Of a stretch of 64,000 nucleotides of DNA, positions 8,203-56,978 are shown piece after piece (positions within the stretch are counted from its first letter, which is position 1; every line of letters begins with the position of its first letter). The stretch is from Chthonomonadaceae bacterium (GTDB lineage: Bacteria; Armatimonadota; Chthonomonadetes; Chthonomonadales; Chthonomonadaceae), in assembly GCA_965246825.1 (NCBI GenBank), contig OZ251990.1, positions 3,894,541 through 3,958,540 on the forward strand, written 5' to 3'. Position numbers and translations under genes: made by a program. Under the pieces are notes generated by a model, which was given only the letters and a program-made list of their open reading frames with translations, had not been told where the DNA came from and did not search any database.

Positions 8203-8209
8203 AAACAGG

Positions 8210-27678: not shown

Positions 27679-29157
27679 TCATCGGCCCCATTCCAAAAGG
27701 CGAATGCCGGTTCGGTCAATCCCTACCCCGGCCACACTGGTGTCCACACTCAGCGCAAGCCGACCGAGCGGTGCTCCGTTCAGCAGGACAGTGAGGCGGG
27801 AAAGCGGCAGAGCCAGTTCGAGCGTGTTCCCGGAAACAGCGGTTTGAATGCCGAGGAGGGGAAAGGGACGCCGGTTTTGCACGGTAAAGCCAAGGGCGGA
27901 ACCCGGCGATTCGCCCTTGAAGCCAAAAGGACGCAGCACCACATAAAAGCGGGCGCGGGAGGAAAGTTCGGTTCGGGTGTCCACCCGCAGATAGAGCGTG
28001 CTCAGGTCGTGGCAGACATAAACTGCCTTTACGTCGGCTCCTCCCTGCATCGAGCGAACAAGATTATCTTCCACCGGGTCTACCAGCGCGGGCGGGATTC
28101 GGTTCCAGTCGCCGGGGCTGGCTTTGGCGGGCAGGGTTCCGTTCGGAACCCAGGGAACGGAGGAGGCTCGTATCTGCCCATAAATCTCGTTTGCCGTTAC
28201 GAAGCCGCTTAAAAACCGCTCCATCATCACCGTCTGCGAGGCATAAAGAGAAATCGCTTTTGCTTTGTGCTCGCTCTGCGCGGGGGTCAGGAGAAGGCGG
28301 TTCCACTGTGTGTCCTGCCCGCGCATGGCCGGGGGCGGAGCCAGTGCCTCCTCGTTTCCGCGTCCGCCGGGCTTGGGAGGCCAGTCGCCCCGGTGAACGA
28401 GATAATGGAGAAGGCGGATCGGTTTGGCCCAGGCGGAGGAGGCAGGATCGTCCTGGAGCTCGGCGAGGGCCAGCTGCACAAAGGCGGCGGCGGCGGCATG
28501 GTCGGAGTGATCTTCCTCCGGGTGCGTCACCGTGATAAGTGTGGGGCGAAATTCGGCGATGGCCCGCTTTACATCTTCCGTTACATTCTGGCCGGTGTAG
28601 ACCGTTCCCGGATGAAAACAGTCCCGGTAAGGCGAGGCGGTGCGCCGGGTGAAGGCGGAGGCAAAGGGCGGAGCGGAAGTCCAATTTGAGTTCCACAGGG
28701 CAAGCAGGCCGCCATCCGGGTAGCCGAGAAATTGAGCGGCATCGGCGGGCACACCCAGGGAATGAAGTGCAGTCCCGCTCTCGCTCTGGCGCAGGGTTCC
28801 GAAACGGATGTAATCGGCGGGTTCGAGGCGCAGGCGGCGGGCGGCGTGCTGAACTCCGGCGGGAAAGCCGTCGCCATTGGTGAAGATCACGGCCTTCACG
28901 GTTCCCCCGGTTTCTCGCGTCTTCTGGATCAATCCGGCACTGCCCAGCGTTTCATCATCGGGATGCGGGGCAAATACAAGCAGACGAGTTTCGCGGGTGG
29001 GAGAGGGGAGCAGCGGCAGCGGCGGCTGATCGGCCAGCGAACGATTGAGCGACCGCTGATGGGCATAAAAGGCGGCTTCTGCCGAGCCGAAGTAGACACA
29101 AAACAGAGCCGCTCCGAAGGTGACACTGCGGAGAACCAGCCGAACGTGAGGACGCAA
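27679..29157 (-). CDS. PIG-L/LmbE-family N-acetylglucosaminyl deacetylase with ~250-aa C-terminal extension
   Basis: VFAPHPDDETLGSAG. N-terminal TM helix. The maximal ORF (to 29304) overlaps tRNA-Ser, so the start was moved to TTG 29157. Confidence 0.55.
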   Translation of the reverse strand: MRPHVRLVLRSVTFGAALFCVYFGSAEAAFYAHQRSLNRSLADQPPLPLLPSPTRETRLLVFAPHPDDETLGSAGLIQKTRETGGTVKAVIFTNGDGFPAGVQHAARRLRLEPADYIRFGTLRQSESGTALHSLGVPADAAQFLGYPDGGLLALWNSNWTSAPPFASAFTRRTASPYRDCFHPGTVYTGQNVTEDVKRAIAEFRPTLITVTHPEEDHSDHAAAAAFVQLALAELQDDPASSAWAKPIRLLHYLVHRGDWPPKPGGRGNEEALAPPPAMRGQDTQWNRLLLTPAQSEHKAKAISLYASQTVMMERFLSGFVTANEIYGQIRASSVPWVPNGTLPAKASPGDWNRIPPALVDPVEDNLVRSMQGGADVKAVYVCHDLSTLYLRVDTRTELSSRARFYVVLRPFGFKGESPGSALGFTVQNRRPFPLLGIQTAVSGNTLELALPLSRLTVLLNGAPLGRLALSVDTSVAGVGIDRTGIRLLEWGR

Positions 29158-29248
29158 TTTCCGTGAAAGGGGCAATCGGCACTCCAGAGGAGGGATCAGG
29201 GGGCGGAAGAAAACCCATCCCTGACGCTTCCCCTCCTCCCTGCAAGAG

Positions 29249-29337
29249 CGGAGTGATAGGGATTCGAACCCTAGATAGGGGATTAGCCTATACACGATTT
29301 CCAATCGTGCTCCTTAGACCAACTCGGACATCACTCC
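29249..29337 (-). tRNA. tRNA-Ser (anticodon GGA), type II with long variable arm
   Basis: Minus-strand sequence GGAGTGATGTCCGAGTTGGTCTAAGGAGCACGATTGGAAATCGTG...GGGTTCGAATCCCTATCACTCCG. It has a 7-bp acceptor stem, a 3-bp D stem, anticodon loop TTGGAAA and a long variable arm. Confidence 0.75.
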
Positions 29338-35778: not shown

Positions 35779-36228
35779 ATGTTTTGGGGACAGGAGACCA
35801 AAGCCATCAAGCCCGACCCGCCGACTTTCGACACTTCCCTCCCCCCTGAAACCCGCCTTACCGTTTTCGCTGGGGCAGTCTTTGCCTTTTGTGCGGTCGC
35901 ATTCGGAGCGTTTGGGTCTCACGCCCTCAAAGCCGCCTTGGACGCCAACGGAACCGCCCAAACCTTTCAGACCGGGGCGCACTATCATCTCACCCACGCG
36001 CTCGCGCTTTTGCTTGTGGCCGTTCTGCCTCTTCCGGCTCGGTTTCAACGCCGTCTGCGGCTTCTATTCTCGATTGGAATTCTCATTTTCTCCGGCTCTT
36101 TGTACCTGCTGGCGATAACGAATGTGCGCTGGCTCGGAGCCATTACCCCCCTTGGCGGCCTCTGTTTTCTTTCCGGCTGGCTTACCCTGGCCTATGCCTC
36201 GCTTCGTGCGCCCGCTTCCGTGAGCTGA
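35779..36228 (+). CDS. DUF423 (YgdD/TMEM256-like) membrane protein
   Basis: FGAFGSHALK...GAHYHLTHAL with four TM helices. The 3' end overlaps the convergent regulator gene by 37 nt. Confidence 0.6.
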   Translation: MFWGQETKAIKPDPPTFDTSLPPETRLTVFAGAVFAFCAVAFGAFGSHALKAALDANGTAQTFQTGAHYHLTHALALLLVAVLPLPARFQRRLRLLFSIGILIFSGSLYLLAITNVRWLGAITPLGGLCFLSGWLTLAYASLRAPASVS

Positions 36229-39218
36229 GCCGATTCTGCTGCCCCAACCACCCGTAGGGCATAGGCGACGGCTTGCGGCTCGTCCATTCGTACCCCGGTT
36301 TCCCAGGCGCACCGATAATCTGCCTCTCCAATCTGTTCGCGCAGTTCTTCGAGGTACGCTCTCTGAGCAGGGCGTTCTGCGGGCGGTGTCAAATAGCCGG
36401 TCGCTTCTCGCAGGGTAGCGACGGCCCCCTCAATGGTCACGGCTTCCGCCACCTGCCCCCGTTTCCAGGCCAAATTCGCAAGGTCTTTCAGGGAAAGAGC
36501 GACTGCCCAGAAAACCTGTGCGCCATGAAATCGCTGCAGCGTTTCGCGGACATACTCAAGTGCATCTTCGTCCCGTCCCCGTTGACGTGCCAATTGTCCC
36601 AACGCGCCCAGCGAATAGGCAGACGCGATCTCGTTTCCGTTTTTGTGCCGCAGGCTCAGGGCACGCTCGAAGAAACCCTGGGCCGCACCAAAGTTTTCTT
36701 CACGCATCTCCACGTTGCCCAGGCTGTGACAGGACGCGGCAATTCCCAGCTCATCCTCCAAGGCTTCACGAATGTCGAGGCTTTGCGTGTAGAACTCGCG
36801 GGCAAGCGAAAAATGCTGCTCATAAAAGGCCGCATTGCCCAGCCCTTGCAGAGCCGAAGCCTGCCCTTTCCATCCGCAGCCCTCCTGCGAAATCCGCAGG
36901 GCTTGCCGGTAGTACACTTCGGCTGCCGGGTAATCGGCGCGAAGCTGCGCCAGCACACCCGCCCCCTGAAAGGCTCTGGCCCTTTCCTCGCTCAATCCCT
37001 GTGCTTCCGGGAGGGCCAAAACGGTTTTCAGCCAGTCGTCCCCCTCCCGCAGGCCGCCGTTCAATTCCCAGAACCGACAAAGATTGGCCGCCAGTTTCAG
37101 GGCCAGCGGCGGGTCGTTTCGGACACTCCACCGCAGGGCTTCACGCAGATTGTCCTCGTCCCTTTTCAGGCAGGCGAGGTGGCAGCGTTCCTGCGGCGTA
37201 TGATACGCTTCCTTCGCTTTTTCGGCGAGTGTACTGAAAAATCGGGCGTGAAGTTTTCCGGCGTTTTCGGTTAGTCCCGATTCTTCGAGTTTTTCAAGCC
37301 CGAACTCCCGAAGCGGCTCTAGCATCCGCATTCGCTCCTCGCCTTCGGCCTCTGGAGTTTGGAGGGAGTGCGCCGCCTGAAAAATTAGAGAACGCTCTTG
37401 TAACTCTTCGATCAGAAAAGGAGTTTCTTCGCCCAGCACCGCTTCTGCCGCCTCCAGCGTCCAGCCGCCGCGAAAAACGCTCAGCTTCACAAAAGCAGCC
37501 CGCAGTTCGTCGGACAACTGCTCGCAGCTCCATTCGCAGGCGGCCCGCAGGCTCTGCTGACGGGCAGGCAGGTCTTTGCGGCGGCTCACCAGAATTCTCA
37601 GTTGATCTTCCAGTTTTTCCAGCATCCGGGCCGGGGGAAGGGTTTTAATCCAGGCCGCCGCCATCTCAATTGCCAGCGGCATCCCCTCCAGCCGACGGCA
37701 AAGTGAGATGACTGCTTCCGTATTGTGAGAAGTCAGGAGAAAGTCGGCTTTTGCTTTTTGGGCCCGATCCACATAGAGGGCAACCGAGGCACAGGCGGAG
37801 GCCGGGTCGAGGCCGACGTTTTCCGGCAGCGCAAGCGGCGGAAGCACAAAGACCTGTTCGCCCTCCAGACGAAGAGTCTGCCGCGAAGTCACCAGACATT
37901 TCAAGCCGGGGGCTGATTCCAAAAGCCGCCGAATCACCGACCGCCCCCCAGCCCCAAGCGGGTTTTCGGCTTTGGTCTCTTCGTCGGAAAGCAGGTGCTC
38001 CATGTTGTCCAGAACGAGCAGAGACGGAGCCTCCTGCAATTTTGTAAAAACGGCTTGAAGCGGATCGGCCTGTGAAGCCGAAAGATGAAGAGCATTGCGC
38101 AGCAGCATCGGAATCAGGGAGGGAGCCGGAATGTCCGCCAGCGAAACAAACCAGACCCGCCCGCTGAACTGCGGCGAAATGCGGCGGGCGACCTCCAGCG
38201 CAAGGCGGGTTTTACCGGCTCCTCCTGCTCCCAGAATCGTCACGAGCCGAGTCGAGCCGTCGAGAAGAAAATCTTCGAGTTTTTTTTGTTCCTCCTCTCG
38301 CCCGAAAAATTTTGCCAGCGGCTTCGGCAGCGAGGCCGCATCATCCGGGGAAGCCGCAGAGAAGGGAAGCAGAGAGGACGGAGCCGAGGGGGAGGGAAGC
38401 GTGGCCGCAGGGGTCTTTTTCGTTAAGACGGAGGGACGCGCCTGAACCTCAGCGCAACGCAGCACATTGGCGTTACTTTGGCGAACGGCCTCCTTGAGGG
38501 AAACCGTTTCCGGGTGCGGCGAAGCCCCGAACTCGGAGCACAGGGCCGTCTCCAGCCGTCCATAGGCTTTGAGCGCGGCCTCTCGAAGTCCCTGCATCGC
38601 GCTCGCCTTCATCAACAGGCGGCAGGCTCGCTCATCACAGGGGTCGCTTTCCAGCAAAGCCTCGGCGTCCTGCTGCGCTTCCTGAAGGCGTTCTTCTTCC
38701 AAAAGCAGTTCGGCCCGCTCAAGCAGGGCAGCCGTTCTCTGTGCAGCTGTGCGCGTCTGCGCTCCAATCGCCCACTCGTCATAAAACGACGGCAGCAAGG
38801 GAGAGGCGGAAAGTGCAAGGGCGATGGAAAGCGGGGTGAGGCGGGCGTGTAGGTCGGTTTCACGGCGGGCTGCACGAAGCGCGGCCTCGAACTCGTGAAC
38901 GTCCACCTGAACCGAGGCTGCGTTGAGTGAAACCGACTGGCGATCTGCCCTAAGCACCGATCCGGCAGAAGTGCCTGCCGGTTCGAGAACCCGACGCAAA
39001 AAACTGAGATGGGTACTGAGATTGTTGCGGCCTGCGTCGGCTTCCATCTCCGGCCAGAGCAAATCCATGAGCTGCTCTCGCGAAGGCGTCTGCCCTAGAG
39101 AAAGGGCAAGGTAGGCCAGCAGGTGTCTTGCTTTCTGAGAGGGAAAGCGGGTCACCGCTTCGCCGAACCGAACCAGCCTCAATCCGCCGAAAAGCTCAAT
39201 GCGACAATCGCTTTCCAT
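36192..39218 (-). CDS. STAND-class regulator: OmpR/PhoB-type winged-helix + BTAD domain, NB-ARC-like P-loop NTPase, and TPR repeats (AfsR/SARP-like)
   Basis: N-terminal ELFGGLRLVRFGEAVTRFPSQKARHLLAYLAL (SARP-type wHTH), P-loop LVTILGAGGAGKTRLALEVA, an LVTSRQTLRLEGE (hhhhTSR) motif, and C-terminal TPRs. GGAGGAA ribosome-binding site before ATG 39218. Confidence 0.75.
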   Translation of the reverse strand: MESDCRIELFGGLRLVRFGEAVTRFPSQKARHLLAYLALSLGQTPSREQLMDLLWPEMEADAGRNNLSTHLSFLRRVLEPAGTSAGSVLRADRQSVSLNAASVQVDVHEFEAALRAARRETDLHARLTPLSIALALSASPLLPSFYDEWAIGAQTRTAAQRTAALLERAELLLEEERLQEAQQDAEALLESDPCDERACRLLMKASAMQGLREAALKAYGRLETALCSEFGASPHPETVSLKEAVRQSNANVLRCAEVQARPSVLTKKTPAATLPSPSAPSSLLPFSAASPDDAASLPKPLAKFFGREEEQKKLEDFLLDGSTRLVTILGAGGAGKTRLALEVARRISPQFSGRVWFVSLADIPAPSLIPMLLRNALHLSASQADPLQAVFTKLQEAPSLLVLDNMEHLLSDEETKAENPLGAGGRSVIRRLLESAPGLKCLVTSRQTLRLEGEQVFVLPPLALPENVGLDPASACASVALYVDRAQKAKADFLLTSHNTEAVISLCRRLEGMPLAIEMAAAWIKTLPPARMLEKLEDQLRILVSRRKDLPARQQSLRAACEWSCEQLSDELRAAFVKLSVFRGGWTLEAAEAVLGEETPFLIEELQERSLIFQAAHSLQTPEAEGEERMRMLEPLREFGLEKLEESGLTENAGKLHARFFSTLAEKAKEAYHTPQERCHLACLKRDEDNLREALRWSVRNDPPLALKLAANLCRFWELNGGLREGDDWLKTVLALPEAQGLSEERARAFQGAGVLAQLRADYPAAEVYYRQALRISQEGCGWKGQASALQGLGNAAFYEQHFSLAREFYTQSLDIREALEDELGIAASCHSLGNVEMREENFGAAQGFFERALSLRHKNGNEIASAYSLGALGQLARQRGRDEDALEYVRETLQRFHGAQVFWAVALSLKDLANLAWKRGQVAEAVTIEGAVATLREATGYLTPPAERPAQRAYLEELREQIGEADYRCAWETGVRMDEPQAVAYALRVVGAAESAQLTEAGARSEA

Positions 39219-39527
39219 GCCGCTTCCTCCACCCGCGTTTTTAATCCATCGCTCCCTGTTGCAAATTCCTGAACGGTCTCTTTATTTTACTCTGTTTTCT
39301 TTTTTTTGAGAGTGTGAATTTTTTAGGAGTTGCTTAGGAGTCGTGTGATATTCTTCTCCAGAAGCGATCTCATTGCACCGATTGCAAAGGCAGGAAGCCC
39401 CCCAGGCTTTTGCCGAGCGATGCACGCTCGTGACGCTTTCCGTTCGGGCAGAACCCAGCGTTGTCTTCACGAATTTGGCTGCTTCCGAACCTGTTCCACT
39501 CTCTTTTTTCACTCCGTAGGAGGAACT

Positions 39528-42485
39528 ATGTACCGTCCCCTTCGAAATGCGCTTTGGATGATGACGCTGTTGGTCCTCATCCTCACCCGGAATCCTGCCT
39601 GCGGGCAAACTCTTTCGATTCCCGCTCCCCAGCTCAACAAAATCATCTATGTTGCCAATGCGCTCTCGCACATTGACACCGACAAAACCCGCGAGAAAGC
39701 GGCGCAGGCGTTCTATGTTGTACAGCAGTACACTCAGTATCCCAATTCCGACCCGCGATTGGTGCTGAAATTGCTGAATCGCGCTCAGGACACCTTCGAC
39801 AAAAAGTACCGCTCGAACGCCAATTACAATGCTTATCGCTACCGCATGGTCTCTTATGAGGTTGTGGCGAATATGCTGAGTATTTTGGCGGCACAGCCGG
39901 GAAACGAAGTGCCGATTTCGCTGGTGAAAGAAGCCACCAACTTCGCCACCCTCGATGCAAACGGGCTGGGCGATCCGCAGACTCAGTATCTGGAAGCCAG
40001 CGCAATCGTCGGCAACAGCCGCATTGCAGGACGCTTTCAGAAATATCTGAACACCCAAATCGAAAACCTTTACGACCTGGGCCTCAGCAATCCCCGCGCT
40101 CAGGTGGTAGCCGATGTCTTTTTCGGGTCTTCGTTCAATGCCTACGTCGGCAACACCGCCTTGATGACCCTGAACGCCAACCCCGCGTTTCGGGACAGCG
40201 CGAACTTCCGCCCCCTCTTCCTTAAAATTGATCCGATTACCGGAGCCTTGAATGCCACCCGGGCCCAGATCAATCAAATCATCGCGGATTACCGGGCGCG
40301 AATGGCACAGGTCTTCACCGATAACATCGCCGTTCTCTCCACCTTGACCGCCCACCAGAAAACGGACTATTCGAGCTACCCTGCTTCCGCCCAGGCCGTC
40401 AGCGATCAGGCGGCAGTGGACGCCCGCAAAGCCCCCAATCTCGCCGCGCTTCAATCGGCCCCCGCGTTCAGTTATGTCACTCCGTTCACCATCGAACCCG
40501 ATCCGAAACACCAGGCTTACGAGCAGGCACGCGCTGTGCTTGATTTGGCCTCTAAAGTTGCCACTTTCGCTGCCGATGTGACGGAGGCGGCCTCTCCTGC
40601 GGGCTTGCTCGAAAGCGAAGCCCCCGCCGTTCGCGCCGTCGCTTCAGGAATTGATGTGGCGGGAGCCGCGATGGATGTGGCGGAAGCCTTCGGTGCATTC
40701 GGCAAATCCAATGATGAAGTCATCATGGACGGCATCAATCAGCTCAGCAGTCAGATGGCATCTTTTCAAAACCAGATCAATGGCCGCCTCGACATCATTG
40801 ACCAGAATATCGCCAATCTTTACAGCGCGGTCAACACGCAGTTTGCCGGAATTCGCGATACACTGGCGAACATCTCCAGCACCCTCGCCCAGCTCCAAAG
40901 CCAGGTCATCGGGATGCAGAGCAGTCTGTTCAACCTTCAATCCAGTCTGGATCGCCTGACGCAGAATATCTATGAGTTTGCAAGCCAAGCGGTACGTCAG
41001 CCGCTTAAAAACGACCTCGCAACGATTGATACCTATGTCCGCAACTCGCTCACGATCACGCAGTCGGACTACACCGGGCTTTACAGCCGCACGAAACAGT
41101 ACGCCACCGGAACCGTTTTCGATGCCGCCGAGATTGGAACGGCCCTGAACGGAAGGGCCTACGACGATCTGAGCGTCAAAAACGAACTCAACAGCCCCAA
41201 TCCCGAATGGAACCTGAACTACGCGCTGGAGTTTGCCCGCCGCCGCTTCGGGCCAGGACGCACCGGAACCGATGCCGCCAATTTCAGTGCTGTAACGGCC
41301 CTCGGCCCCTCCGGTCAATTGATTGCCAACCCACGCGGCTGGGAAATGAGCGTGTCGGGCATGATCCGTCTCGCCTCTCAATATCCCGATCTCTATGCCG
41401 CGACCACACTCACGGATACGCCCAACTCCAATCAGGGCTTTTTCGGAACCCAGCTGGTCGGTGCTCAGATTCAAGGGGCGGCGGCAGGAACGACTCTGCA
41501 AACCGCAGCGGGCGGGGCCACCGTGCTCAGTCCCCTTTTTCCAAACCTGCTGAAACACCAGAGCCTTCAGGCACAGCGGCTGATTACCGCACTCCAGGCT
41601 CTTGCGGCGGAAACGCCCACCGACCTCACCAGCGTGGTCGCCCGGGTGAGAACGCAGTGGACAACCACCAGTCCCACACCGAACGGCATCAATCTGCAAA
41701 CCGCGATCAAAGCCCTCAGCGGCAGCCGATCCCTGCTCAACACCTTTGTGACCTTCGGACTTTCCCGCACCCTCTCCAGCAACGATCTGCTCAGTTCCCT
41801 GCTCTACAGCCCGCAGCGGCTGCCCGACGATGAACTGGTTAAATCGCTTTACGACGGCTGGGCTTCAGGACAGCCTGATCCGCTGACCATTTTCCAAAGC
41901 TCTCAGTCAACGCGGCAGGCGAACTTCACCGCCTTGCTGAACACGATTCTGACTGGGCTTTTCGCTCAAACCGCAGGACGACCGGCAGCGGGCGAAACGG
42001 TTCCGTCGGTGGAGATTATGCTGCGCCGCCTCGATCCCTTCACCAATGTGAAGGTCACGATGACGGTCACCCCCGGTTCGGGTCAATTTATTGCGGGCGA
42101 CCCCCTCCTGTTCACCTTCCGCTCCTCGGATGCCGTCTACCCGGTTTCTCTGCTTCCCGATCCCGTCAGCGGCAAATACAGTGTTTCGGTTCCTCCGGGC
42201 TACTACAGCGTTGCCATCAAAGCCAGCCGCTTTCTGCAGCGGGTAATCGCCGATGTCAATACGCTCACCGGGCCGAAAGCAATTTCCGCCAGCCTGCTGG
42301 TCGGCGATGTTTTCAACGATAACCGCATTGACAATCGGGATCTGATCGCCCTCCGCAATGCCCTCGGCTCCAGCGCGAACAGTCCGAATTGGAACCCGCT
42401 CGCCGACCTCAACGGAGACGGCGTAGTGAACATGACCGACTTCAATCTGCTGCGCACCAACTACGGGCGCGTCGGCGACCCGTAA
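39528..42485 (+). CDS. large secreted protein (985 aa) with coiled-coil region and C-terminal dockerin-like domain
   Basis: Strong AGGAGGAA ribosome-binding site. Signal peptide MYRPLRNALWMMTLLVLILTRNPACGQ. C-terminus DNRDLIALRNALGS...DLNGDGVVNMTDFNLLRTNYG (paired dockerin-type Ca-binding repeats). Confidence 0.55.
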   Translation: MYRPLRNALWMMTLLVLILTRNPACGQTLSIPAPQLNKIIYVANALSHIDTDKTREKAAQAFYVVQQYTQYPNSDPRLVLKLLNRAQDTFDKKYRSNANYNAYRYRMVSYEVVANMLSILAAQPGNEVPISLVKEATNFATLDANGLGDPQTQYLEASAIVGNSRIAGRFQKYLNTQIENLYDLGLSNPRAQVVADVFFGSSFNAYVGNTALMTLNANPAFRDSANFRPLFLKIDPITGALNATRAQINQIIADYRARMAQVFTDNIAVLSTLTAHQKTDYSSYPASAQAVSDQAAVDARKAPNLAALQSAPAFSYVTPFTIEPDPKHQAYEQARAVLDLASKVATFAADVTEAASPAGLLESEAPAVRAVASGIDVAGAAMDVAEAFGAFGKSNDEVIMDGINQLSSQMASFQNQINGRLDIIDQNIANLYSAVNTQFAGIRDTLANISSTLAQLQSQVIGMQSSLFNLQSSLDRLTQNIYEFASQAVRQPLKNDLATIDTYVRNSLTITQSDYTGLYSRTKQYATGTVFDAAEIGTALNGRAYDDLSVKNELNSPNPEWNLNYALEFARRRFGPGRTGTDAANFSAVTALGPSGQLIANPRGWEMSVSGMIRLASQYPDLYAATTLTDTPNSNQGFFGTQLVGAQIQGAAAGTTLQTAAGGATVLSPLFPNLLKHQSLQAQRLITALQALAAETPTDLTSVVARVRTQWTTTSPTPNGINLQTAIKALSGSRSLLNTFVTFGLSRTLSSNDLLSSLLYSPQRLPDDELVKSLYDGWASGQPDPLTIFQSSQSTRQANFTALLNTILTGLFAQTAGRPAAGETVPSVEIMLRRLDPFTNVKVTMTVTPGSGQFIAGDPLLFTFRSSDAVYPVSLLPDPVSGKYSVSVPPGYYSVAIKASRFLQRVIADVNTLTGPKAISASLLVGDVFNDNRIDNRDLIALRNALGSSANSPNWNPLADLNGDGVVNMTDFNLLRTNYGRVGDP

Positions 42486-42591
42486 CCGTTTCTCTTTGTT
42501 CTTGACTTTTTTCTTTCGCGGCTCCGGTTTTTTGCCCAGGCAGCCGATCCGTCCAAAGGAGAAAAGTCCAACCCTGAAAGCGAATTTTGAA

Positions 42592-43221
42592 ATGCTGACA
42601 AGAAAAATTCATCTCATCGGCGGGAGTGCGCTGGCACTACTCGGCATGGGAATCGGAGCGAACGCGCAGGTGCTGCAATTCACCCCGCCCCGTGCCTCCG
42701 ACAACACAAATCACCTGATTACCTTCAGTTTGACGGTGGACAGGGGGGCTGCGCCTGCAGTCGCTTGGGGAACCGACCTTACCCTGGCCGACCCTTCCAC
42801 CCTGCAATTCGTTTCCGATTTCGGCGGAGCGGGAAAGCCGTTTCTTTCCACACAGCCGTTTTTCGATCTCGACCTCAGCAGTGCCTTCACCCCTGGCAGT
42901 GCAACGCTGAATCTGAACTTTCTCAATTCCGTCTCCGGGCTGACGCTGGGGGGAACCGGCTCGGTGGTTTTAGGCCAGTTTCAGGTGCGCGTCTTAAAAG
43001 ACCCCGGTCTTTCCGGTTCGGTGATTTCGATTGCCGACCTCGCCACGCCTCCGCTCGGCTCCGCGCTGGAAGACGCCGACGGCAACAATCTGCTCGTCGG
43101 CGTCTCCAGCGGGCTGGTGACCCAGAAGTTCCCCTCCCCGGAACCGGAGGGGTGGCTTGCGATGGCCAGTGGTTCCGCGATGTCCCTGTACCTGCTCCGC
43201 CGCAAGCGAAGCCGGGCCTGA
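42592..43221 (+). CDS. PEP-CTERM sorting-domain protein
   Basis: Signal peptide, then C-terminal ...FPSPEPEGWLAMASGSAMSLYLLRRKRSRA (PEP motif, TM helix, basic tail). Confidence 0.6.
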   Translation: MLTRKIHLIGGSALALLGMGIGANAQVLQFTPPRASDNTNHLITFSLTVDRGAAPAVAWGTDLTLADPSTLQFVSDFGGAGKPFLSTQPFFDLDLSSAFTPGSATLNLNFLNSVSGLTLGGTGSVVLGQFQVRVLKDPGLSGSVISIADLATPPLGSALEDADGNNLLVGVSSGLVTQKFPSPEPEGWLAMASGSAMSLYLLRRKRSRA

Positions 43222-43298
43222 TCGGTTTTTGGGATGCCTTTCAAGTGCTATTTCTGTGTTTTGTCTGAGTGATGTGTTTCAGTAAAAGGAGTTCTATT

Positions 43299-45920
43299 GT
43301 GCAGCGCAAACTTTCTCTTCTCGCCCCTCTGATGGCTTTGGCCGCCTCCGGCGTCGCCGCTCAAACCGTGGCCCCGGTTCCTTCTCTGATGAATTTTCAG
43401 GGACGTCTCGCCAAGCCCGACGGCACTCCCGTTGCCGACGGGGTTTACAGCATTCGCTTTTCTCTTTGGGATGCCGCGACGGGTGGAAACGAAAAGTGGA
43501 ACCAGACCGTTTCCCCCGTCAATGTTCGTAACGGCACGTTCGCGACCCTGCTCAATGTGGGCAGCGGGCCTTCCGACCTCTTTGCCGACAACCGCTGGCT
43601 GGAAATAAAAATCGGCACAAATGCCCCGCTGACAAACCGGCAGCAGCTTGTGTCGGTGGCGTTTGCCCTTAAAGCGAACACGGTTCCCGACAATTCAATT
43701 ACCGCTGCCAAAATCGCCGACGGTACGATCACTGCCACCAAACTTTCCACCGGCCTGACGGTTACACCCGGCGGGGCGGCGGGCGGTGACCTCACCGGCA
43801 TCTATCCCAACCCCACCCTTGCCACGCTGGGCACTTCCCTCTACAAAGTCTCCGGTACGCTGATGTCGGCGACCAATACGAGCCTGACGGTGGATCAATC
43901 GCAGACAAACGCGCCGCTGCTCATCACCGATTATGGCTGGCAGTCTTTTACGCCCGCCGCAAACAGCAAACTGACGAGCCTCGACATCTGGATCGGAACC
44001 TCCACCGGAGTCGCCCATGGAGCCACTCTGACGATTTACGCCGGAGAGGGAAATACCGGAACGGTGCTTCAGTCGCAAACGGTGAACGTTCAGCCGACAA
44101 TCGGTTTTCAGCATTTCGATCTCAGCACCTCGGTCGCTTTGGCGGCGGGTCTGAAATACACTTACTCGATTGGCTCTTATGCCCCGCTCCGTCTGGGCTA
44201 CTCCACCGGCAATCCCTATCCCAATGGGAAAGCCGATGCTGGGGACACGCTGGACTACGCCTTCCGAACCTACATTCAGGCCTCTGCCAGTTCCCAGCTG
44301 ACGGCACTGGCTCCGTTTCTTTTCTCGAACACCACGCAGGCTTCCGAGCGTTTCCGATTGAGCGGGCAGGAGTATTATCAGGCATCGAACACCTCGGCAG
44401 ACGGCATCTCGTTTATTCTGGGCTTAAACCGCGCCAACAACCGTCAGCTGTGGATTATGGACAGTGCCCGCCTGACCCCCAATATGGTCAACTCTTCGCT
44501 GCAGCTCTCTCCGGGCGGAGACCTCTATCCCTCGGCGATCAATGCGATGTCCTCGGACGGAAACACCCCTCAAACGCTCACGCTTCAGCCCGGCGGCGGC
44601 AGTCTCGGAATTGGAACCTACTCGCCGACCACCAAACTGGACGTGAACGGCAACCTCTCCCTGACGGACACCGGAAGCATCGCCATCGCCTTTAAGGGCA
44701 ACGGCGAAATCAGCGCGGATACGGGCATCGGGCATCCCGGTGACGGGCAACTCACCTTCTGGGCCGATGCAGGGGAGCAGATGCGCTTGAAGGGAGGGAA
44801 CTTCGGCATTGGCACGAACAACCCGGAAAAACGGCTTCATGTGGCGGGCGATGTTTTGCTGAACAACACCAATATCCTTTATGGAAAAAACTCTGCCGGA
44901 GCGAACGAAGGGGTGCTCTGGCCCCGCTGGAGCGACAACGGAACTTACCTCAACTTTGGAACAGGCGGCTTTTTCATCCGCTCCAACGACAGCATCCCTC
45001 GGATGTTCGTCACCAATTCGGGAAACGTTGGAATTGGAACAACTAGTCCGGGCGCGAAATTCGATGTGCGCGGCGGCAGTGCCGTCGTCACCAATGCTTC
45101 CGGGGCGAATCGCGTTATCAGCGGGCTGAATACCGGGGTAGACGCGGGCTATTTCCAGATCATCAACGGCAATAACAATCTAATTGCCGGTTTCGGTGGA
45201 GACAACAACGGCGGCAGTCTGTATGTACGGGACGGGGCGAATGCGACCAAATTTTCTGTTGACGCCAGCGGGTATGTCAATGCAGCAAATGGAGGCAGCT
45301 TCGGTAATGTCACCTTGCACAATGCGGGCAACTACAGCGCGATCCGCGCTTACAACAGCTCTCCCATCGTGAACGGAGTGAGCTACCCAACCATTTACGC
45401 CCAAAACTACAGCGGCGGACTGGCACTGTTTGCCGTTGGAGCGATTGGTTCCAGCATCAAAAACTTCATCATTGACCACCCGCTCGATCCGGGAAACAAA
45501 TACCTCGTTCATGCGAGCGTAGAAAGCGACAAGGCGCAAAATATGTACAATGGAACCGTTAAACTTGACGCAGAAGGCAAAGCCTGGGTGAAACTCCCCG
45601 ATTGGTTTGAGGCTCTCAACAAAGATTTTACCTATCAGCTGACCTGCATCGGCGGCTATGCTCAGGTTTATATCGCGCACGAAGTAAAGGACAATCAATT
45701 CCAGATTGCGGGCGGAGGGCCGAACATGAAGGTTTCCTGGCAGGTGACCGGGGTTCGCCACGACGCCTACATCAATGCTTACCCGATGAGTGTGGTGCAG
45801 GACAAAGGCGCGGATCGCGGCAAATATCTGAACCCTGTCCTGTTCGGGCAGCCCGCCTCCAAAGGCGGCGTCATGCAGGCCCCCGCAGCCCCGATCACCC
45901 CCGCACAGGAAAATAAATAG
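43299..45920 (+). CDS. large secreted protein (873 aa), fibre/adhesin-like, function unknown
   Basis: Start set to GTG 43299, 7 nt after an AAAGGAG ribosome-binding site, which gives signal peptide KLSLLAPLMALAASGVAAQ. Gly/Asn/Thr-rich beta-type repeats and a distinct ~150-aa C-terminal domain (IIDHPLDPGNKYLVHASVESD...). Confidence 0.5.
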   Translation: MQRKLSLLAPLMALAASGVAAQTVAPVPSLMNFQGRLAKPDGTPVADGVYSIRFSLWDAATGGNEKWNQTVSPVNVRNGTFATLLNVGSGPSDLFADNRWLEIKIGTNAPLTNRQQLVSVAFALKANTVPDNSITAAKIADGTITATKLSTGLTVTPGGAAGGDLTGIYPNPTLATLGTSLYKVSGTLMSATNTSLTVDQSQTNAPLLITDYGWQSFTPAANSKLTSLDIWIGTSTGVAHGATLTIYAGEGNTGTVLQSQTVNVQPTIGFQHFDLSTSVALAAGLKYTYSIGSYAPLRLGYSTGNPYPNGKADAGDTLDYAFRTYIQASASSQLTALAPFLFSNTTQASERFRLSGQEYYQASNTSADGISFILGLNRANNRQLWIMDSARLTPNMVNSSLQLSPGGDLYPSAINAMSSDGNTPQTLTLQPGGGSLGIGTYSPTTKLDVNGNLSLTDTGSIAIAFKGNGEISADTGIGHPGDGQLTFWADAGEQMRLKGGNFGIGTNNPEKRLHVAGDVLLNNTNILYGKNSAGANEGVLWPRWSDNGTYLNFGTGGFFIRSNDSIPRMFVTNSGNVGIGTTSPGAKFDVRGGSAVVTNASGANRVISGLNTGVDAGYFQIINGNNNLIAGFGGDNNGGSLYVRDGANATKFSVDASGYVNAANGGSFGNVTLHNAGNYSAIRAYNSSPIVNGVSYPTIYAQNYSGGLALFAVGAIGSSIKNFIIDHPLDPGNKYLVHASVESDKAQNMYNGTVKLDAEGKAWVKLPDWFEALNKDFTYQLTCIGGYAQVYIAHEVKDNQFQIAGGGPNMKVSWQVTGVRHDAYINAYPMSVVQDKGADRGKYLNPVLFGQPASKGGVMQAPAAPITPAQENK

Positions 45921-46078: not shown

Positions 46079-46831
46079 ATGTTTCGACATTCTCATTTTT
46101 CTTTGCGCGTTCTCAGCCCGATTGCCCTCAGTCTCCCCGTGCTGGGAGGGCTTACCCTTTCGCCCGCTGCGTTCGCGCAGGCTCCCGGCATTGCGTTTTA
46201 CGAGTTTTCGTCCTGCGCCCTCGACTTCGCTCCCTCAGGCACGCCGCCCCTCTCCCTCCAAGCCACCCTCGGCCAAACCTTGGTCACCGTTGACCCGCCC
46301 ACCCCTCCCGACCAGACCCGCGCCGCCCTCGGCTTTTGGGAAACCGGCGTTCCCTTTCTCTACCAAACCCAGGTTGACCTCGAAGGCTTTGTCGGCAGAA
46401 CCGCCGCTCCCCTCCGCTCCCTTCCCTTCACCTTTCAGCTTCTCGACGCTTCCGGCACACTGATCGACCAGATCGAGGCCTTCCCCGCTTCCACCAACGC
46501 CCAAAACTCCGCCAACTTCGCCGTCTCCTCCTGGGCCAACCCCGCTTTTGTCGCTTCCCTCACCGCCAAAGGCGACCGCTGGCTGAGGCAGAAAAAGGCG
46601 AGCACCCTTTCAGCCGCTGGCTCTCCGGGAGCGGCGTTCGCGCTTTTGGCGGGCGACGCGAACAACAACAATGTCGTGGATGTAGACGACCTCACCCTTT
46701 TGCTCAACCTCTACAACACGGCGGCGGGGGACGGTCTTTATCTTGCCGCCGCCGACTTCACCGGAAACGGAACGGTGGATGTGGACGACCTCACCCTTTT
46801 GCTCCACAACTACAACACCAACGGAAACTAA
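46079..46831 (+). CDS. secreted protein with C-terminal dockerin repeats
   Basis: AGGAG ribosome-binding site, then ATG 46079. Signal peptide, then GDANNNNVVDVDDLTLLLNLYN and ADFTGNGTVDVDDLTLLLHNYN (dockerin type-I-like duplicated repeats). Confidence 0.55.
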   Translation: MFRHSHFSLRVLSPIALSLPVLGGLTLSPAAFAQAPGIAFYEFSSCALDFAPSGTPPLSLQATLGQTLVTVDPPTPPDQTRAALGFWETGVPFLYQTQVDLEGFVGRTAAPLRSLPFTFQLLDASGTLIDQIEAFPASTNAQNSANFAVSSWANPAFVASLTAKGDRWLRQKKASTLSAAGSPGAAFALLAGDANNNNVVDVDDLTLLLNLYNTAAGDGLYLAAADFTGNGTVDVDDLTLLLHNYNTNGN

Positions 46832-50077: not shown

Positions 50078-51250
50078 TTAGTATAGCACGGAGGGGAAAC
50101 GGAATTCGCTTCGATCCAGGGTCGGTTTCTCCTCCGCTGCCCACTGCGCCAGAGCCTCGCCGATGGCGGCGGAGTGCTTGAACCCGTGCCCCGAACAGGG
50201 TGACGCCACAAAAACTTGTGGAAATTCCGGCAGGGCATCCAGTAGAAAGCGTGCATCGGGGGCAGCGGTATAAAGGCAGACGCGGGTCGCAGCACATTCG
50301 GTGCTCAAGGCGGGAAAGAAGGGCGCGATATTCTGACGGTGCATTGCCTCGATCTCTGCCTCCGAAACGCTGCGATCCACCGTTTCGGGGGTGGTGGTTT
50401 CGAGATAGGTTTCGGAGGCCGCCTTGACCAGATCGCCCGTTTCATTGAGAGCCGGAAAACCGTAAATCCCGGAGCCGCCGCGATCCTGCTCCCAGATGAA
50501 TACGGGAAAGCGTTCCGGGGAAAAAAGCGCGGGGTTTTCTCGAACCCGAAACCAGTACATCACCTGCCGGTAAACCGAAAGGGAAGCCCGCAGGGAAGGC
50601 AGCAGCTGCGAAACCCAGGCCCCGGCTCCAACGATCACCTTTTCCGCCCGATAAACCTCTCGTTCCGTTCGGATCGTGACGCCCCTCCCCGACGGTTGGG
50701 GAAGAATTTCCAGCACCTGCTCGTTGTAAGCAAGAACGGCTCCCAGCGATTTTGCCCGCTCCAGCTGCGCTTCCACACACGCTTCCGGGCGCACAAACCC
50801 GGCTCCAGGTTCATAGTAGCCGCGTTCGTCCCCGGAAAGCGAGAAGGCAGGAAATCGCGCATTGATGTCGGCGGCGGTCAGCCGTTCGTGCGGAATATGA
50901 AACGCTTCTGCCGTGCGGAGGGTTTGCTCGAAAAAGTTGGGCTTGCCATGAAGCCCTGCTGTTTTCCCGCCCGCAGCAAGAATCAGACCGCCGTTCTGCG
51001 TAAGAAGTGTGCGCCCGGTTTCTGCTTCGAGTTCGCGCCAGAGTTCGTGGGAGCGCAGCACAAACGGAACGTAGGCTGCCCCCTCGCCAATGGCCTGCCG
51101 CGTGACCCGGCTTTCGCCCTGCGTGGAACCGAGTGAATGCGGCGGCGTATACTGATCGAGTCCGATGACGCGCCCTCCCCGCCGGGCCATGTGATAGACG
51201 GCGGCAGCCCCCATCGCTCCCAGCCCCACCACAACGCAGTCGGCGTTCAT
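50078..51250 (-). CDS. FAD-dependent oxidoreductase (DAO/sarcosine-oxidase-like family)
   Basis: N-terminal VVVGLGAMGAAAVYHMARRGGRVIGLDQ (GxGxxG Rossmann) and a C-terminal SGHGFK motif. Overlaps the upstream CHAT gene by 4 nt. Confidence 0.75.
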   Translation of the reverse strand: MNADCVVVGLGAMGAAAVYHMARRGGRVIGLDQYTPPHSLGSTQGESRVTRQAIGEGAAYVPFVLRSHELWRELEAETGRTLLTQNGGLILAAGGKTAGLHGKPNFFEQTLRTAEAFHIPHERLTAADINARFPAFSLSGDERGYYEPGAGFVRPEACVEAQLERAKSLGAVLAYNEQVLEILPQPSGRGVTIRTEREVYRAEKVIVGAGAWVSQLLPSLRASLSVYRQVMYWFRVRENPALFSPERFPVFIWEQDRGGSGIYGFPALNETGDLVKAASETYLETTTPETVDRSVSEAEIEAMHRQNIAPFFPALSTECAATRVCLYTAAPDARFLLDALPEFPQVFVASPCSGHGFKHSAAIGEALAQWAAEEKPTLDRSEFRFPSVLY

Positions 51251-54188: not shown

Positions 54189-56972
54189 TTAATGAGGCTG
54201 TTCTTCGGGAGCGGGCTGCGTTTGTGCGAGAGCCTCCGAAATCACTCTCTCCAGCGACTGAGTTTTCAGAAACTCTCTCAAGCGCTCTCTTTCTTCCTGC
54301 GAAGCCCCAGTCGTTTCTGTCATTCGCTGCACTTCCAAAACCACCGGGTCGGGGGAGCGAATTTCACGCAGCAGTCGTTCGGCGGAAAGGAGAAGCAAAA
54401 CGGCGCGGTCGGTGTCGCCGAGCTGCGCGACTGCCTCTCCGAGATTGGCGAGCGCGAACGCAATGCCAGGGACATGGCGCAGGTTGTGCTCGTAGCCCAA
54501 TGCTTCGGAGTAGTGATCCCAGGCCGCCCGGTACTTTTGCTGATAAAATGCCCCGACCCCCAGATTATTGAGGGTTTCGGCAATTCCTCGGCGGTCATCG
54601 AGCCTGCGCCGCAGCTTCAAGGCTTCCTGCAGGTGGGTTTCTGCTTTGACAAAGCGGTCGGGGCCATGCGCTGCATCGCGATGAAACAGCACCCCCAGAT
54701 TGTTATAAACAATAGCAATGCCTACCGTATTTCCGGCAATCTGGAAAAGTTTCAGGGACTGAATAAAATGCTCTTCCGCTTTAGAAAAGGCTTTTTCCTG
54801 CATTTTCACCTGCCCCAGCAAATTTTCTGCTTTGGCAAGCCCGCCGATTTCCTGAGACTCCATCAGCAGCGTTTTCGCCTCCGCGATCAGCTTTCCGGCC
54901 TCTTCCCCCTGTCCATAATCGAAATGAAGTCCAGCGCGTTCCAGCATCAACCGTGCGGTCAGCGAGGGGAAATCGGCTTTGCAGGGATGGATTTGCTCCA
55001 GCCCTGCCTGGAGGGTTTCGGCGGCATCTTGAAGAAATCCCTGCCGGGTCAAGGCAGTTCCTACAGCGAGGGCCAATTCTGCAAACAGCTCCGGGCTTTC
55101 CGATAGGCTCGCCCAATCCAGAGCGGCTTTCAGATTGCTGCGATTGACCTCCAATTCTCTCAGGGCTTCGGCTTCACGTGCGGTACGAGCCTGCCCCAGC
55201 CGTTCCTGAGCAAACCGCAGAAAGTGAGCGGCATGGCGATGACAGACCGCGTTTTCCTGCTGCAATTCCATCAGCTTTTCGGCGGCGTACTCACGCAGGC
55301 TTTCCAGCATCAGAAAGCGTGTTTCTTCTTGGGAGGCATCCATTTCCAGGCGAAAAAACGACTGCTGCCGAAGGGCGATCACGCTCTCGAACACATCGAA
55401 GGCTTCGCACACCGCTTCGGCGTCCGCGAGTGTAAACCCGCCAACAAACACCGACACCTGCGCGAAAACCGATTTGTCTTCGTCGGTAAGAAGGCAGTAA
55501 GACCAGTCAATCGCTCCGCGCAGGGCACGCTGACGGGGAGAAAGGTCGGGCGAACGCGACTGAAGCAGCCGAAAACGTTCATTTAATCGTTGCAAAATCT
55601 GTTTCGGCGTCATCCCCACAATTCTCGATGCGGCCAGTTCCATCGCCAGTGGAACCCCTTCAAGCCGCTCGCAGAGGGTTTCCACCTCGGTTCGGTTTTC
55701 ATCCGTCAGGGTAAAATCGGGCCGAAATTCCGCCGCTCGCTCCACAAAGAGACGGGCAGACTCCACCCGGCTCATCGGCATGAGTTCCAACACCGTTTCG
55801 CCCCGCACCTCCAAGGCCCGCCGGGAAGTGACCAGACATTTGATTTGCTGGGCGGCACTGAGCAGGTCGCGCACGATGAGGGCGGCGTTTTGGATTTGTT
55901 CGAGGTTATCTAAGATCAGCAGAGCGCGTTTGTCACGCAAAGCCCCAAAAATCTGCTCTTTAATGCTGGGGGTCGGCTGGAGGATCAAAGCCAGGTGTTC
56001 GGCAATGCGGCGCACCATTTCGTCGGCGGTTCGCGTTTGTTCCAGGTCAAACCACCAGACCCCATCGGAAAATTGTTCGATCACCCTTTCCCCGATTTGC
56101 ATAGCGACGCGGGTTTTTCCAATTCCGGCAAACCCAGTCACCGTAAAAAGGCGGTGCGTGGCCTTTTTTACCAGATCGGCCCACTCGGAAATTTCGGTTT
56201 CGCGTCCGACAAAAGCCGTCAGCTGCTGGGGCAGATTCTGGATCGTTGTTTTTTGCGCCTGAAGAGAGGGAAAGTCTGCTCGAAGCCCTGCGTGAACGAG
56301 CTGGTAAATACGGATTTGTTCGATGTCACGAAGCCGATGGGAGCCGAGGTCGCGAAGCGACGCGCCCTGCGGAAGCCCCTCCCGCAACAGCGCAAAAGTG
56401 GTATCGGAAAGCAAAATCTGCTCTCCGTAAGCCAATTCAAGCAGCCGGGAAGCCCGGTTCAGAGGCTGTCCATAATAGTCGCTGCCCCGCAGTTCCGCCG
56501 AACCGGTGTTAAGGGCCATTCGTACTTTCAGAGAGGTGCGGGCATCCCACGCCTCTTTTTGCAGTTCTGTTTGTGCGGTCCAGGCTCCCGCTACGGCAGA
56601 GCGCACATCGGCGAACACCGCATAAAACGCATCTCCCGCCGTTTTGAAGATTTGGCCGTCGCACCCTTCAACGGCCTGACGAATGATTTCATCGTGGCGT
56701 GCCAAAGCAGTTCGCATTGCTTCCGGGTAAAACTCCCAGAGCCGCGAACTTCCTTCGATGTCGGTAAACAAAAAAGTGAGGGTTCCGCTTGGTAAAAGCA
56801 CAAACTTTCCTCTGCTCGCGCCAGCGCGATGGATCCTTCGAGATACCGCTCTATTCGGCACACCGAAAGGGTTTTCCTTTTTAGAACGGAGGGGCACACG
56901 GCTTAAACTCACTCGGCGAGAAAAACCGAACTTATTTTCGAGGTTTGTGCGGTTAAGCGAAAGAGCGTACAT
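54189..56972 (-). CDS. class III adenylate/guanylate cyclase domain fused to NB-ARC-like STAND NTPase and TPR repeats
   Basis: Cyclase motifs FLFTDIEGSSRLWE, KTAGDAFYAVF and LNTGSAELRG. P-loop LFTVTGFAGIGKTRVA, an LVTSRRALEVRGE motif, then TPRs. Start uncertain: ATG 56972 is used here, and the maximal ORF reaches 57029. Confidence 0.7.
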   Translation of the reverse strand: MYALSLNRTNLENKFGFSRRVSLSRVPLRSKKENPFGVPNRAVSRRIHRAGASRGKFVLLPSGTLTFLFTDIEGSSRLWEFYPEAMRTALARHDEIIRQAVEGCDGQIFKTAGDAFYAVFADVRSAVAGAWTAQTELQKEAWDARTSLKVRMALNTGSAELRGSDYYGQPLNRASRLLELAYGEQILLSDTTFALLREGLPQGASLRDLGSHRLRDIEQIRIYQLVHAGLRADFPSLQAQKTTIQNLPQQLTAFVGRETEISEWADLVKKATHRLFTVTGFAGIGKTRVAMQIGERVIEQFSDGVWWFDLEQTRTADEMVRRIAEHLALILQPTPSIKEQIFGALRDKRALLILDNLEQIQNAALIVRDLLSAAQQIKCLVTSRRALEVRGETVLELMPMSRVESARLFVERAAEFRPDFTLTDENRTEVETLCERLEGVPLAMELAASRIVGMTPKQILQRLNERFRLLQSRSPDLSPRQRALRGAIDWSYCLLTDEDKSVFAQVSVFVGGFTLADAEAVCEAFDVFESVIALRQQSFFRLEMDASQEETRFLMLESLREYAAEKLMELQQENAVCHRHAAHFLRFAQERLGQARTAREAEALRELEVNRSNLKAALDWASLSESPELFAELALAVGTALTRQGFLQDAAETLQAGLEQIHPCKADFPSLTARLMLERAGLHFDYGQGEEAGKLIAEAKTLLMESQEIGGLAKAENLLGQVKMQEKAFSKAEEHFIQSLKLFQIAGNTVGIAIVYNNLGVLFHRDAAHGPDRFVKAETHLQEALKLRRRLDDRRGIAETLNNLGVGAFYQQKYRAAWDHYSEALGYEHNLRHVPGIAFALANLGEAVAQLGDTDRAVLLLLSAERLLREIRSPDPVVLEVQRMTETTGASQEERERLREFLKTQSLERVISEALAQTQPAPEEQPH

Positions 56973-56978
56973 TCCTTT

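Follow-up and report, generated by a model that had tools for sequence, protein, structure and literature searches.

What do two large proteins with closely similar cores and different amino termini do in one stretch of a bacterial chromosome, and does either of them control the genes beside it? The window analyzed here is a stretch of 64,000 nucleotides (64 kb) from a Chthonomonadaceae bacterium of the phylum Armatimonadota (contig OZ251990.1, positions 3,894,541 to 3,958,540). It encodes two such proteins, open reading frame (ORF) A and ORF B, as uninterrupted reading frames that both lie on the minus strand. The initial annotation of the window described them as one NB-ARC-TPR chassis fitted with different output domains, a transcription factor in ORF A and a nucleotide cyclase in ORF B, and proposed that ORF A may regulate an adjacent island of genes for large secreted proteins. 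The present analysis identifies ORF A and ORF B as two members of one large STAND family in which a core of NOD plus TPR array carries an N-terminal head that is the output. As a whole, we favor with good confidence the explanation that ORF A would act as a SARP at the island and that ORF B is a predicted competent cyclase on the same STAND switch. The features of the two proteins, with coordinates counted from the first nucleotide of the window, are as follows.

36192..39218 (-), ORF A, a large SARP-type regulator of 1008 residues with the order winged helix-turn-helix (wHTH), BTAD, NOD, TPR; assigned by Pfam and by alignment to AfsR (8k60), with an N-terminus that agrees with its orthologs
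38973..39137 (-), OmpR-type winged-helix domain of ORF A, residues 28-82; Trans_reg_C 33.9 bits, cut-off 26.2
38481..38906 (-), BTAD domain of ORF A, residues 105-246; PF03704 70.3 bits against a cut-off of 22.1, E 2.9e-19, whole profile 1-146
37257..38327 (-), NOD (STAND P-loop NTPase) of ORF A, residues 298-654; from phmmer with the ORF B NOD and from motifs, 37% identity to the ORF B NOD
38208..38231 (-), Walker A of ORF A, GAGGAGKT; motif coordinates
37995..38021 (-), Walker B of ORF A, LLVLDN; motif coordinates
37878..37898 (-), sensor-I of ORF A, CLVTSR; motif coordinates
37665..37685 (-), GMPLAIE of ORF A; motif coordinates
36414..37151 (-), TPR array of ORF A, approximately residues 690-935 (span estimated); TPR_12, TPR_2, TPR_1, and TPR_10 match at about 787-896, and the array aligns with that of ORF B
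54189..56801 (-), ORF B, an adenylate cyclase-NB-ARC-TPR protein of 870 residues from GTG 56801; assigned by Pfam and the start-codon argument below
56277..56801 (-), class III cyclase domain of ORF B, residues 1-175; alignments to Ma1120 (4wp3) and GRESAG4.1/4.3, conservation in homolog alignment A1
56751..56768 (-), D14 of ORF B in FTDIEG; motif coordinates
56628..56648 (-), K53 and D57 of ORF B in FKTAGDA; motif coordinates
56469..56486 (-), D108 of ORF B in GSDYYG; motif coordinates
56445..56462 (-), N115 and R119 of ORF B in LNRASR; motif coordinates
55242..56231 (-), NOD of ORF B, residues 191-520; NB-ARC 47.3 bits and motif coordinates
56112..56135 (-), Walker A of ORF B, GFAGIGKT; motif coordinates
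55896..55922 (-), Walker B of ORF B, LLILDN; motif coordinates
55818..55838 (-), CLVTSR of ORF B; motif coordinates
55638..55658 (-), GVPLAME of ORF B; motif coordinates
54297..55124 (-), TPR array of ORF B, approximately residues 560-835 (span estimated); TPR_12 62 bits, aligns with the TPR array of ORF A

BLASTP aligned ORF A and ORF B at 31% identity over 665 residues (E = 4e-64), from just before the P-loop through the TPR arrays, and the two NODs are 37% identical over 352 residues. The resemblance claimed in the initial annotation, a shared P-loop, an LVTSR-type motif, and C-terminal TPR repeats, is correct and far beyond chance, and the central regions belong to the same P-loop family rather than to unrelated ones. 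Both proteins have Walker A, Walker B (hhhLDN), sensor-I CLVTSR, G(M/V)PLA, and the SVF.GG(W/F) start of a winged helix. The Walker A sequences conform to GxxGxGK[ST] (GAGGAGKT at residues 330-337 of ORF A, GFAGIGKT at residues 223-230 of ORF B). The STAND Walker B, sensor-I Arg, and GxP elements are LLVLDN, CLVTSR, and GMPLAIE in ORF A and LLILDN, CLVTSR, and GVPLAME in ORF B, and the Walker B, TSR, and GxP positions are invariant or nearly so in alignment A1. The longer motif that first drew attention to the pair reads CLVTSRQTLRLEGE in ORF A (from residue 441) and CLVTSRRALEVRGE in ORF B (from residue 322). The window contains two NOD copies only, these two, and a third is absent. Hidden Markov models placed BTAD (PF03704) in ORF A and both Guanylate_cyc (41.8 bits, cut-off 21.9) and NB-ARC in ORF B above their cut-offs. 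The NB-ARC label was thus right for ORF B (47.3 bits, cut-off 23.5); ORF A scores slightly below the same cut-off (23.0 bits), yet AAA_16 passes over its residues 303-382 (34.7 bits, cut-off 32.6).

The head of ORF A has the two elements that define the SARP family, an OmpR-type wHTH and a BTAD directly after it. Trans_reg_C and BTAD are both above cut-off, and the description of this head as a SARP/OmpR winged helix plus BTAD stands. Residues 6-616 align to the solved AfsR structure (8k60), and the SARP domains of AfsR and EmbR were also matched. A protein identical to ORF A is on record (P0001).

The proposal that ORF A regulates the divergent island gains comparative backing, since both the divergence and a predicted operator are conserved in five loci. 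The relevant features are these.

39323..39340 (+), predicted SARP box TTAGGAG-TTGC-TTAGGAG, 11-bp period; conserved tandem heptamer
39349..39354 (+), -10-like hexamer TATTCT, 8 nucleotides past the 3' heptamer, towards the dockerin gene; TAnnnT in five loci
39528..42485 (+), predicted target gene 1, secreted 985-residue protein with a signal peptide and C-terminal dockerin; Dockerin_1 match at 992-1042 in the longer ORF
42592..43221 (+), predicted target gene 2, a small secreted protein whose tail is PEP-CTERM-like; from its translation, with homologs in L087 and L088
43269..45920 (+), predicted target gene 3, secreted fiber-like protein with repeated GIGT motifs; from its translation; L087 and L088 have homologs of 43-46% identity with the gene order kept
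46079..46831 (+), last island gene, for a secreted protein whose C-terminus has dockerin-like repeats; weak Dockerin_1 match, translation

The two closest ORF A homologs (54% and 50% identity, at loci L087 and L088) are divergent from an operon homologous to 39528..45920, in which genes for a dockerin protein, a protein of about 234 residues, and a fiber-like protein keep their order. Two further homologs (49% and 45%) are divergent from other large, probably secreted proteins, one with CBM_2 and one with TIG. The box occurs at the equivalent place in L087, L088, L089, and L090, which with the window makes five orthologous loci, and it is always on the strand of the divergent gene. One or two positions differ in L087 and L088, and the spacer differs in L090. 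The five intergenic regions align nowhere except at the box, and the regulators beside it share only 45-54% identity. In the 64 kb window the box is the sole match at two or fewer mismatches (0.13 expected). A near-exact search of 89 loci, with one variable base in the second heptamer, recovered just L088 and L089, so that the 85 loci retrieved for unrelated purposes gave no match; the one-base variant in L087 was picked up by a looser search. The putative recognition-helix stretch DAGRNNLST(H/L)LS(F/L)LRR is near-invariant among the five box-bearing orthologs and differs in remoter regulators.

SARP-activated promoters have direct repeats spaced at 11 or 22 bp, and 8 bp separate the 3' repeat from the -10 element (PMC10936776). 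The geometry of box plus hexamer (39323..39354) agrees in silico with this rule. A TAnnnT hexamer follows the box by 8 nucleotides (7 in L088) in all five loci, reading TATTCT, TATTCT, TATACT, TACGTT, and TATGGT. A sigma-70 consensus scan of 39150..39600 returned no -35/-10 pair, a result in keeping with a promoter that lacks a -35 element, though weak as evidence for it. Because the divergence is conserved, the box is conserved with SARP geometry, the recognition helix is near-invariant, and no consensus promoter is found, ORF A likely activates the island from the box at 39323..39340 with a leader of about 170 nucleotides, a prediction that we hold with moderate confidence.

Some observations weigh against this assignment. 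In three loci the box precedes the ORF A start by 104, 101, and 99 nucleotides, and autoregulation, in addition or instead, is therefore possible. The AGGAG within each heptamer resembles a Shine-Dalgarno sequence, though no conserved start codon follows, and the -10-like hexamers are weak. The strongest competing explanation takes the TTAGGAG repeat as an autoregulatory operator or upstream element of the ORF A gene, or as the site of another regulator, in which case the island would not be a SARP target. It draws on the nearly constant distance to the ORF A start in those three loci, set against a distance to the divergent start that ranges from about 100 to 435 nucleotides. Read towards the divergent gene, however, the heptamers and the TAnnnT 8 nucleotides on form a SARP-activated promoter geometry in five of five loci, whereas the ORF A strand has no -10-like sequence at this distance beyond the box. 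The two roles could also coexist. We regard a purely autoregulatory or unrelated site as unlikely and retain activation of the island by ORF A.

The dockerin gene at 39528 has a signal-peptide-like N-terminus, an AGGAGG Shine-Dalgarno sequence, and homologs at the same position in L087 and L088. Upstream starts at TTG 39330 and GTG 39345 were rejected on the signal peptide and AGGAGG at ATG 39528 and on upstream DNA that is conserved only at the box. Rfam detected no RNA family in the island leader of about 170 nucleotides or near either the ORF A or the ORF B gene. The translation of 42592..43221 ends ...PSPEPEGWLAMASGSAMSLYLLRRKRSRA, a PEP-CTERM-like signal made up of PEPEGW, a hydrophobic helix, and RRKRSRA, and such a signal implies an exosortase system in the organism.

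ORF B had been taken to start at ATG 56972, giving 54189..56972; the start was revised to GTG 56801. Homologs in alignment A1 (24 sequences) start a few residues, mostly about 2 to 13, before TFLFTDIEGS, the closest homolog has 872 residues and covers 99% of the 870-residue version, and AGGA lies 6 nucleotides upstream of GTG 56801. The 57 extra residues from ATG 56972 have a counterpart in no homolog. Because of the homolog N-termini, the best-hit coverage, and the upstream AGGA, GTG 56801 is most likely the start. ORF B (54189..57029, minus strand) has no match at 90% identity or above in the protein collection searched, the best being 51%, and ORF A, the TPR-CHAT protein described below, the dockerin protein, and the Pup ligase at the window's far end each have a 100% match in the same collection. 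Although its frame is intact, the source annotation may have missed the ORF B gene or marked it as a pseudogene.

The Guanylate_cyc score bears out the initial description of the ORF B head as a class III cyclase. Aligned to Ma1120 and GRESAG4.1/4.3, this domain retains six canonical residues, D14, K53, D57, D108, N115, and R119. Going by the established roles of these positions in class III cyclases, D14 and D57 would bind metal, K53 and D108 would specify ATP, and N115 and R119 would stabilize the transition state. D14 is invariant in alignment A1, and D57 is retained in at least 90% of its sequences. The metal-binding Asp pair and the substrate-specifying residues, the loss of which would have spoken against a cyclase, are thus all present, and ORF B is predicted to be catalytically competent.

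The gene after ORF B encodes a third protein of interest.

51247..54156 (-), exported TPR-CHAT (caspase-like) protease of 969 residues, 32 nucleotides downstream of ORF B; CHAT PF12770 246 bits

The CHAT catalytic dyad is present, with the His in HFATHG (from residue 827) and the Cys in LSACNTARGE (from residue 874), and both are conserved in alignment A4. The protein carries a signal peptide of the Sec type, and at least three homologs show one clearly. At all six loci of the closest ORF B homologs (49-53% identity), a TPR-CHAT gene adjoins the cyclase gene. It is downstream in five of them, and in the sixth the contig edge, upstream of the cyclase gene, holds a C-terminal piece of a CHAT gene. 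A single terminator-like site occurs near the ORF B/CHAT junction (54127..54106); it falls inside the CHAT gene, and the frequency of such sites is not above that of shuffled sequence. ORF B is very probably cotranscribed with the TPR-CHAT gene. The unit may extend into a gene for a DAO-family FAD oxidoreductase (50078..51250, minus strand), which starts 4 nucleotides before the CHAT stop in an ATGA overlap and is not conserved at the homolog loci.

The link between ORF B and CHAT is real as a gene neighborhood. ORF B has no signal peptide, and the export of its partner argues against a direct complex, so that one in the cytoplasm is unlikely. As a negative control for the adjacency, no CHAT gene was detected within 8 kb at any of 80 distant cyclase-NOD loci, mycobacterial ones included, among the matches listed. 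From the CHAT side, and as a point against the pairing, a NOD gene is nearby in only 6 of 77 related metagenomic loci. In that search a NOD gene directly abuts CHAT in three loci, with both gene orders, and one of the three is a SARP-cyclase-NOD fusion. Loci with CHAT next to a cyclase-STAND or SARP-cyclase-NOD gene are L001, L003, L084, L085, L086, L092, L099, and L131. Locus L086 has two tandem cyclase-NOD-TPR genes (3360..8640, plus strand) that overlap by 8 nucleotides upstream of one TPR-CHAT gene; pieces of a third cyclase and of a separate TPR gene lie further upstream, which suggests local duplication of the module. On the other side of ORF B, an ORF for an ECF-type sigma factor (56979..58286, plus strand) is divergent from it and has a C-terminal extension of about 250 residues without a Pfam match. 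A link between this sigma factor and ORF B was rejected, as no sigma gene is immediately upstream of the homolog in six loci.

ORF A and ORF B each have thousands of homologs in genomes and metagenomes. The named ones are Armatimonadota (Chthonomonadaceae, Armatimonas, Capsulimonadales, and Abditibacteriaceae), and remoter cyclase-NOD relatives with 31-42% identity, among the matches listed, come from Chloroflexota, Actinomycetota including Mycobacterium, Betaproteobacteria, Ignavibacteria, and others. A metagenome scan with ORF B alone gave no relative. A head census and a tree were made from the best 240 homologs, the top 120 for each query. The census counted 115 cyclase-NOD forms, 87 SARP-NOD forms, 34 SARP-cyclase-NOD triple fusions, 1 kinase-NOD form, and 3 with NOD only among the 240; one additional sequence labeled NOD-SARP is probably an artefact of overlapping hits. 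Pfam confirmed triple fusions in P0215, P0038, and P0083 and the kinase form in P0222. The shared core and this census support the idea of one chassis with different output heads. Calling the N-terminal modules swapped is too simple: the heads do differ, but triple fusions make up 34 of the 240 and a kinase-headed form exists.

A neighbor-joining tree of the NOD places A and B in two deep clades, a split that is partly by construction through the top-120 sampling of each query. Inside the A clade, triple fusions and SARP-NOD forms are intermixed, and the 18-member sub-clade of ORF B includes one SARP-NOD form and the kinase-NOD form. The tree requires at least 24 changes of architecture. Heads recombine often on the NOD-TPR core, and on this tree A and B represent two old sub-clades of one family rather than recent duplicates. 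The cyclase of the triple fusions is degenerate in 34 of 34: N115 is never kept and is replaced by H, D, E, or Q, and other residues are usually lost. This domain is a predicted pseudo-cyclase module. The pattern is consistent with a SARP head joining a cyclase-NOD-TPR protein whose cyclase later decayed and finally disappeared, although this direction is tentative.

A more far-reaching explanation combines the CHAT neighborhood with the triple fusions. The cyclase-NOD-TPR protein and the exported TPR-CHAT protease would form a new trans-envelope pair in which the periplasmic protease makes or destroys a peptide ligand of the cytoplasmic TPR sensor, leading to cyclic AMP (cAMP), and the SARP-[dead cyclase]-NOD proteins would record the stepwise conversion of a second-messenger STAND protein to transcriptional control, ORF A being its final form. 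We consider this explanation unlikely.

The idea that the ORF B cyclase is a noncatalytic dimerization or regulatory module without second-messenger output takes its plausibility from the pseudo-cyclases in the family, since none of the 34 triple fusions has an intact catalytic set. Against it, all six catalytic residues are kept not only in ORF B but in 67 of 115 cyclase-NOD homologs, and 105 of the 115 keep the four core residues (the metal Asp pair, Asn, and Arg). A noncatalytic ORF B is improbable.

That A and B are anti-phage STAND sensors of the Avs/NLR type, with the heads and CHAT as effectors fired by infection, is very improbable: many bacterial STAND-TPR proteins are immune sensors, CHAT proteases are effectors in type III-E CRISPR, and the ORF B cyclase has a faint PycC-like score (E 0.0085), but PADLOC gave no meaningful match for A, B, or the CHAT protein, ORF A carries a transcription-activator head and has a conserved predicted operator before secreted-protein genes, the Lys/Asp pair of the ORF B cyclase is the usual one that specifies ATP, the CHAT partner is exported, and the genes around A and B are metabolic and housekeeping. 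The PADLOC matches for A and B were a generic TPR model plus scores at E 7e-4 or weaker, and for the CHAT protein the only other match was an oxidoreductase model (E 1.1e-4).

The favored explanation, a SARP at the island and a competent cyclase on the same STAND switch, suggests the following mechanism. By analogy with STAND proteins such as AfsR, the NOD and TPR array of ORF A would keep the head silent as long as no signal permits ATP-dependent oligomerization. A signal received by the NOD/TPR core would free or multimerize the SARP head, and this head would dock as a side-by-side dimer on the two TTAGGAG heptamers at 39323..39340. The box would stand in for the -35 element, ORF A would recruit RNA polymerase to TATTCT, and transcription would enter the divergent dockerin/PEP-CTERM/fiber-like operon (39528..about 46831). 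We infer DNA binding, activation, and the nature of the signal. Class III cyclases must pair to build their active sites, and NOD-driven oligomerization of ORF B would pair its cyclase domains and yield cAMP; both this synthesis and any functional link to the protease are likewise inferred.

The chassis reading is not new: STAND proteins of modular build that carry SARP, cyclase, or kinase heads have been known for a long time, and both the large SARPs and the cyclase-ATPases of the Rv0386 type count as established families. A review of SARPs describes them as confined to actinobacteria and treats them as antibiotic-cluster regulators (PMC10972967). The large SARP in a Chthonomonadales genome contrasts with that actinobacteria-only statement. 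In the literature searched, we found no description of the TTAGGAG box with secreted-protein targets in a non-actinobacterial phylum, of the uniformly dead cyclase of the triple fusions, or of the pairing of a cyclase-STAND protein with an exported TPR-CHAT protein. ORF A and its conserved candidate operator offer a simple system in which to ask what the NOD/TPR core of large SARPs senses. From active cyclase-NOD through SARP-dead-cyclase-NOD to SARP-NOD, these forms give a concrete case of output-module exchange on a STAND core. The cyclase-STAND/exported CHAT pair is a new lead whose meaning is unproven. The current understanding of STAND proteins is not overturned.

Elsewhere in the window, a Pup ligase of the PafA type (60695..62170, minus strand; Pfam 450 bits) is 82% identical to that of Chthonomonas calidirosea and places pupylation genes in Chthonomonadales. 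ARAGORN predicted a tRNA-Ser (GGA) at 29248..29337 (minus strand) that overlaps the 5' end of an ORF at 27679..29304. At its gathering threshold Rfam reported only a tRNA-Arg at 9911..9983 and not the tRNA-Ser of ARAGORN.

Among known systems, ORF A most resembles AfsR of Streptomyces coelicolor (PDB 8K60 and 8JKE) in its order of OmpR-type wHTH, BTAD, P-loop NOD, and TPR. Their NOD motifs are alike (GxxGxGKT, hhhLDN, LVT(A/S)R, and xPLAI), and the AfsR target site follows the same logic as the ORF A box, two direct repeats one helical turn apart over the -35 position. ORF A is not an AfsR ortholog; NCBIfam NF053617 gives 68.5 bits against a cut-off of 1430. A further point on that side is that a search of the PDB with just the NOD of ORF A did not find AfsR at E < 0.01, and because of this the AfsR mechanism is applied here as an analogy and not as orthology. 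A bioRxiv preprint describes an F/Y-HD activation-switch motif in AfsR (H603, D604). By position only, with a phmmer alignment that stops at ORF A residue 616 and AfsR residue 596, the corresponding sequences are RMRMLEPLREF in A and RFLMLESLREY in B, without His-Asp, and M-L-E appears to replace the motif in both. The hosts differ, an armatimonadote for ORF A and an actinomycete for AfsR, and so do the targets, which are secreted surface proteins (predicted) for ORF A and an afsS-like gene or an antibiotic cluster for AfsR.

The SARP-LAL literature already remarks on a relationship to "guanylate cyclases" (PMC10972967). The relationship described there for SARP-LALs such as PimR, SanG, and FilR, compared by description only, matches that of ORF A to ORF B. 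Unlike ORF A, the described SARP-LALs are cluster-situated regulators in Streptomyces.

ORF B resembles the cyclase-ATPase-LuxR proteins Rv0386, Rv1358, and Rv2488c of Mycobacterium tuberculosis, which also have an N-terminal cyclase followed by an NB-ARC-type ATPase. Rv0386 is cited as a proven adenylate cyclase in PMC3466318. Among the matches listed, relatives from mycobacteria share 35-38% identity with ORF B from residue 3 to about residue 630 (cyclase plus NOD), and the one that was scanned with Pfam, from Mycobacterium asiaticum (L036), has Guanylate_cyc, NB-ARC, and GerE (66 bits), the architecture of Rv0386. ORF B gave no GerE hit, and where Rv0386 has a LuxR/GerE helix-turn-helix, the ORF B C-terminus is a TPR array. 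ORF B retains the canonical Lys/Asp substrate pair, whereas Rv0386 reportedly has Gln/Asn in its place. ORF B also has a conserved TPR-CHAT neighbor, and none was detected within 8 kb at the mycobacterial loci listed. DdvA of Myxococcus xanthus is said to be a membrane anti-sigma factor with the CHAT fused to it as an extracytoplasmic TPR-CHAT part. On that account, DdvA and the ORF B locus are alike in tying a TPR-CHAT domain to a cytoplasmic regulator; here the CHAT is a separate exported protein, and its neighbor is a STAND cyclase.

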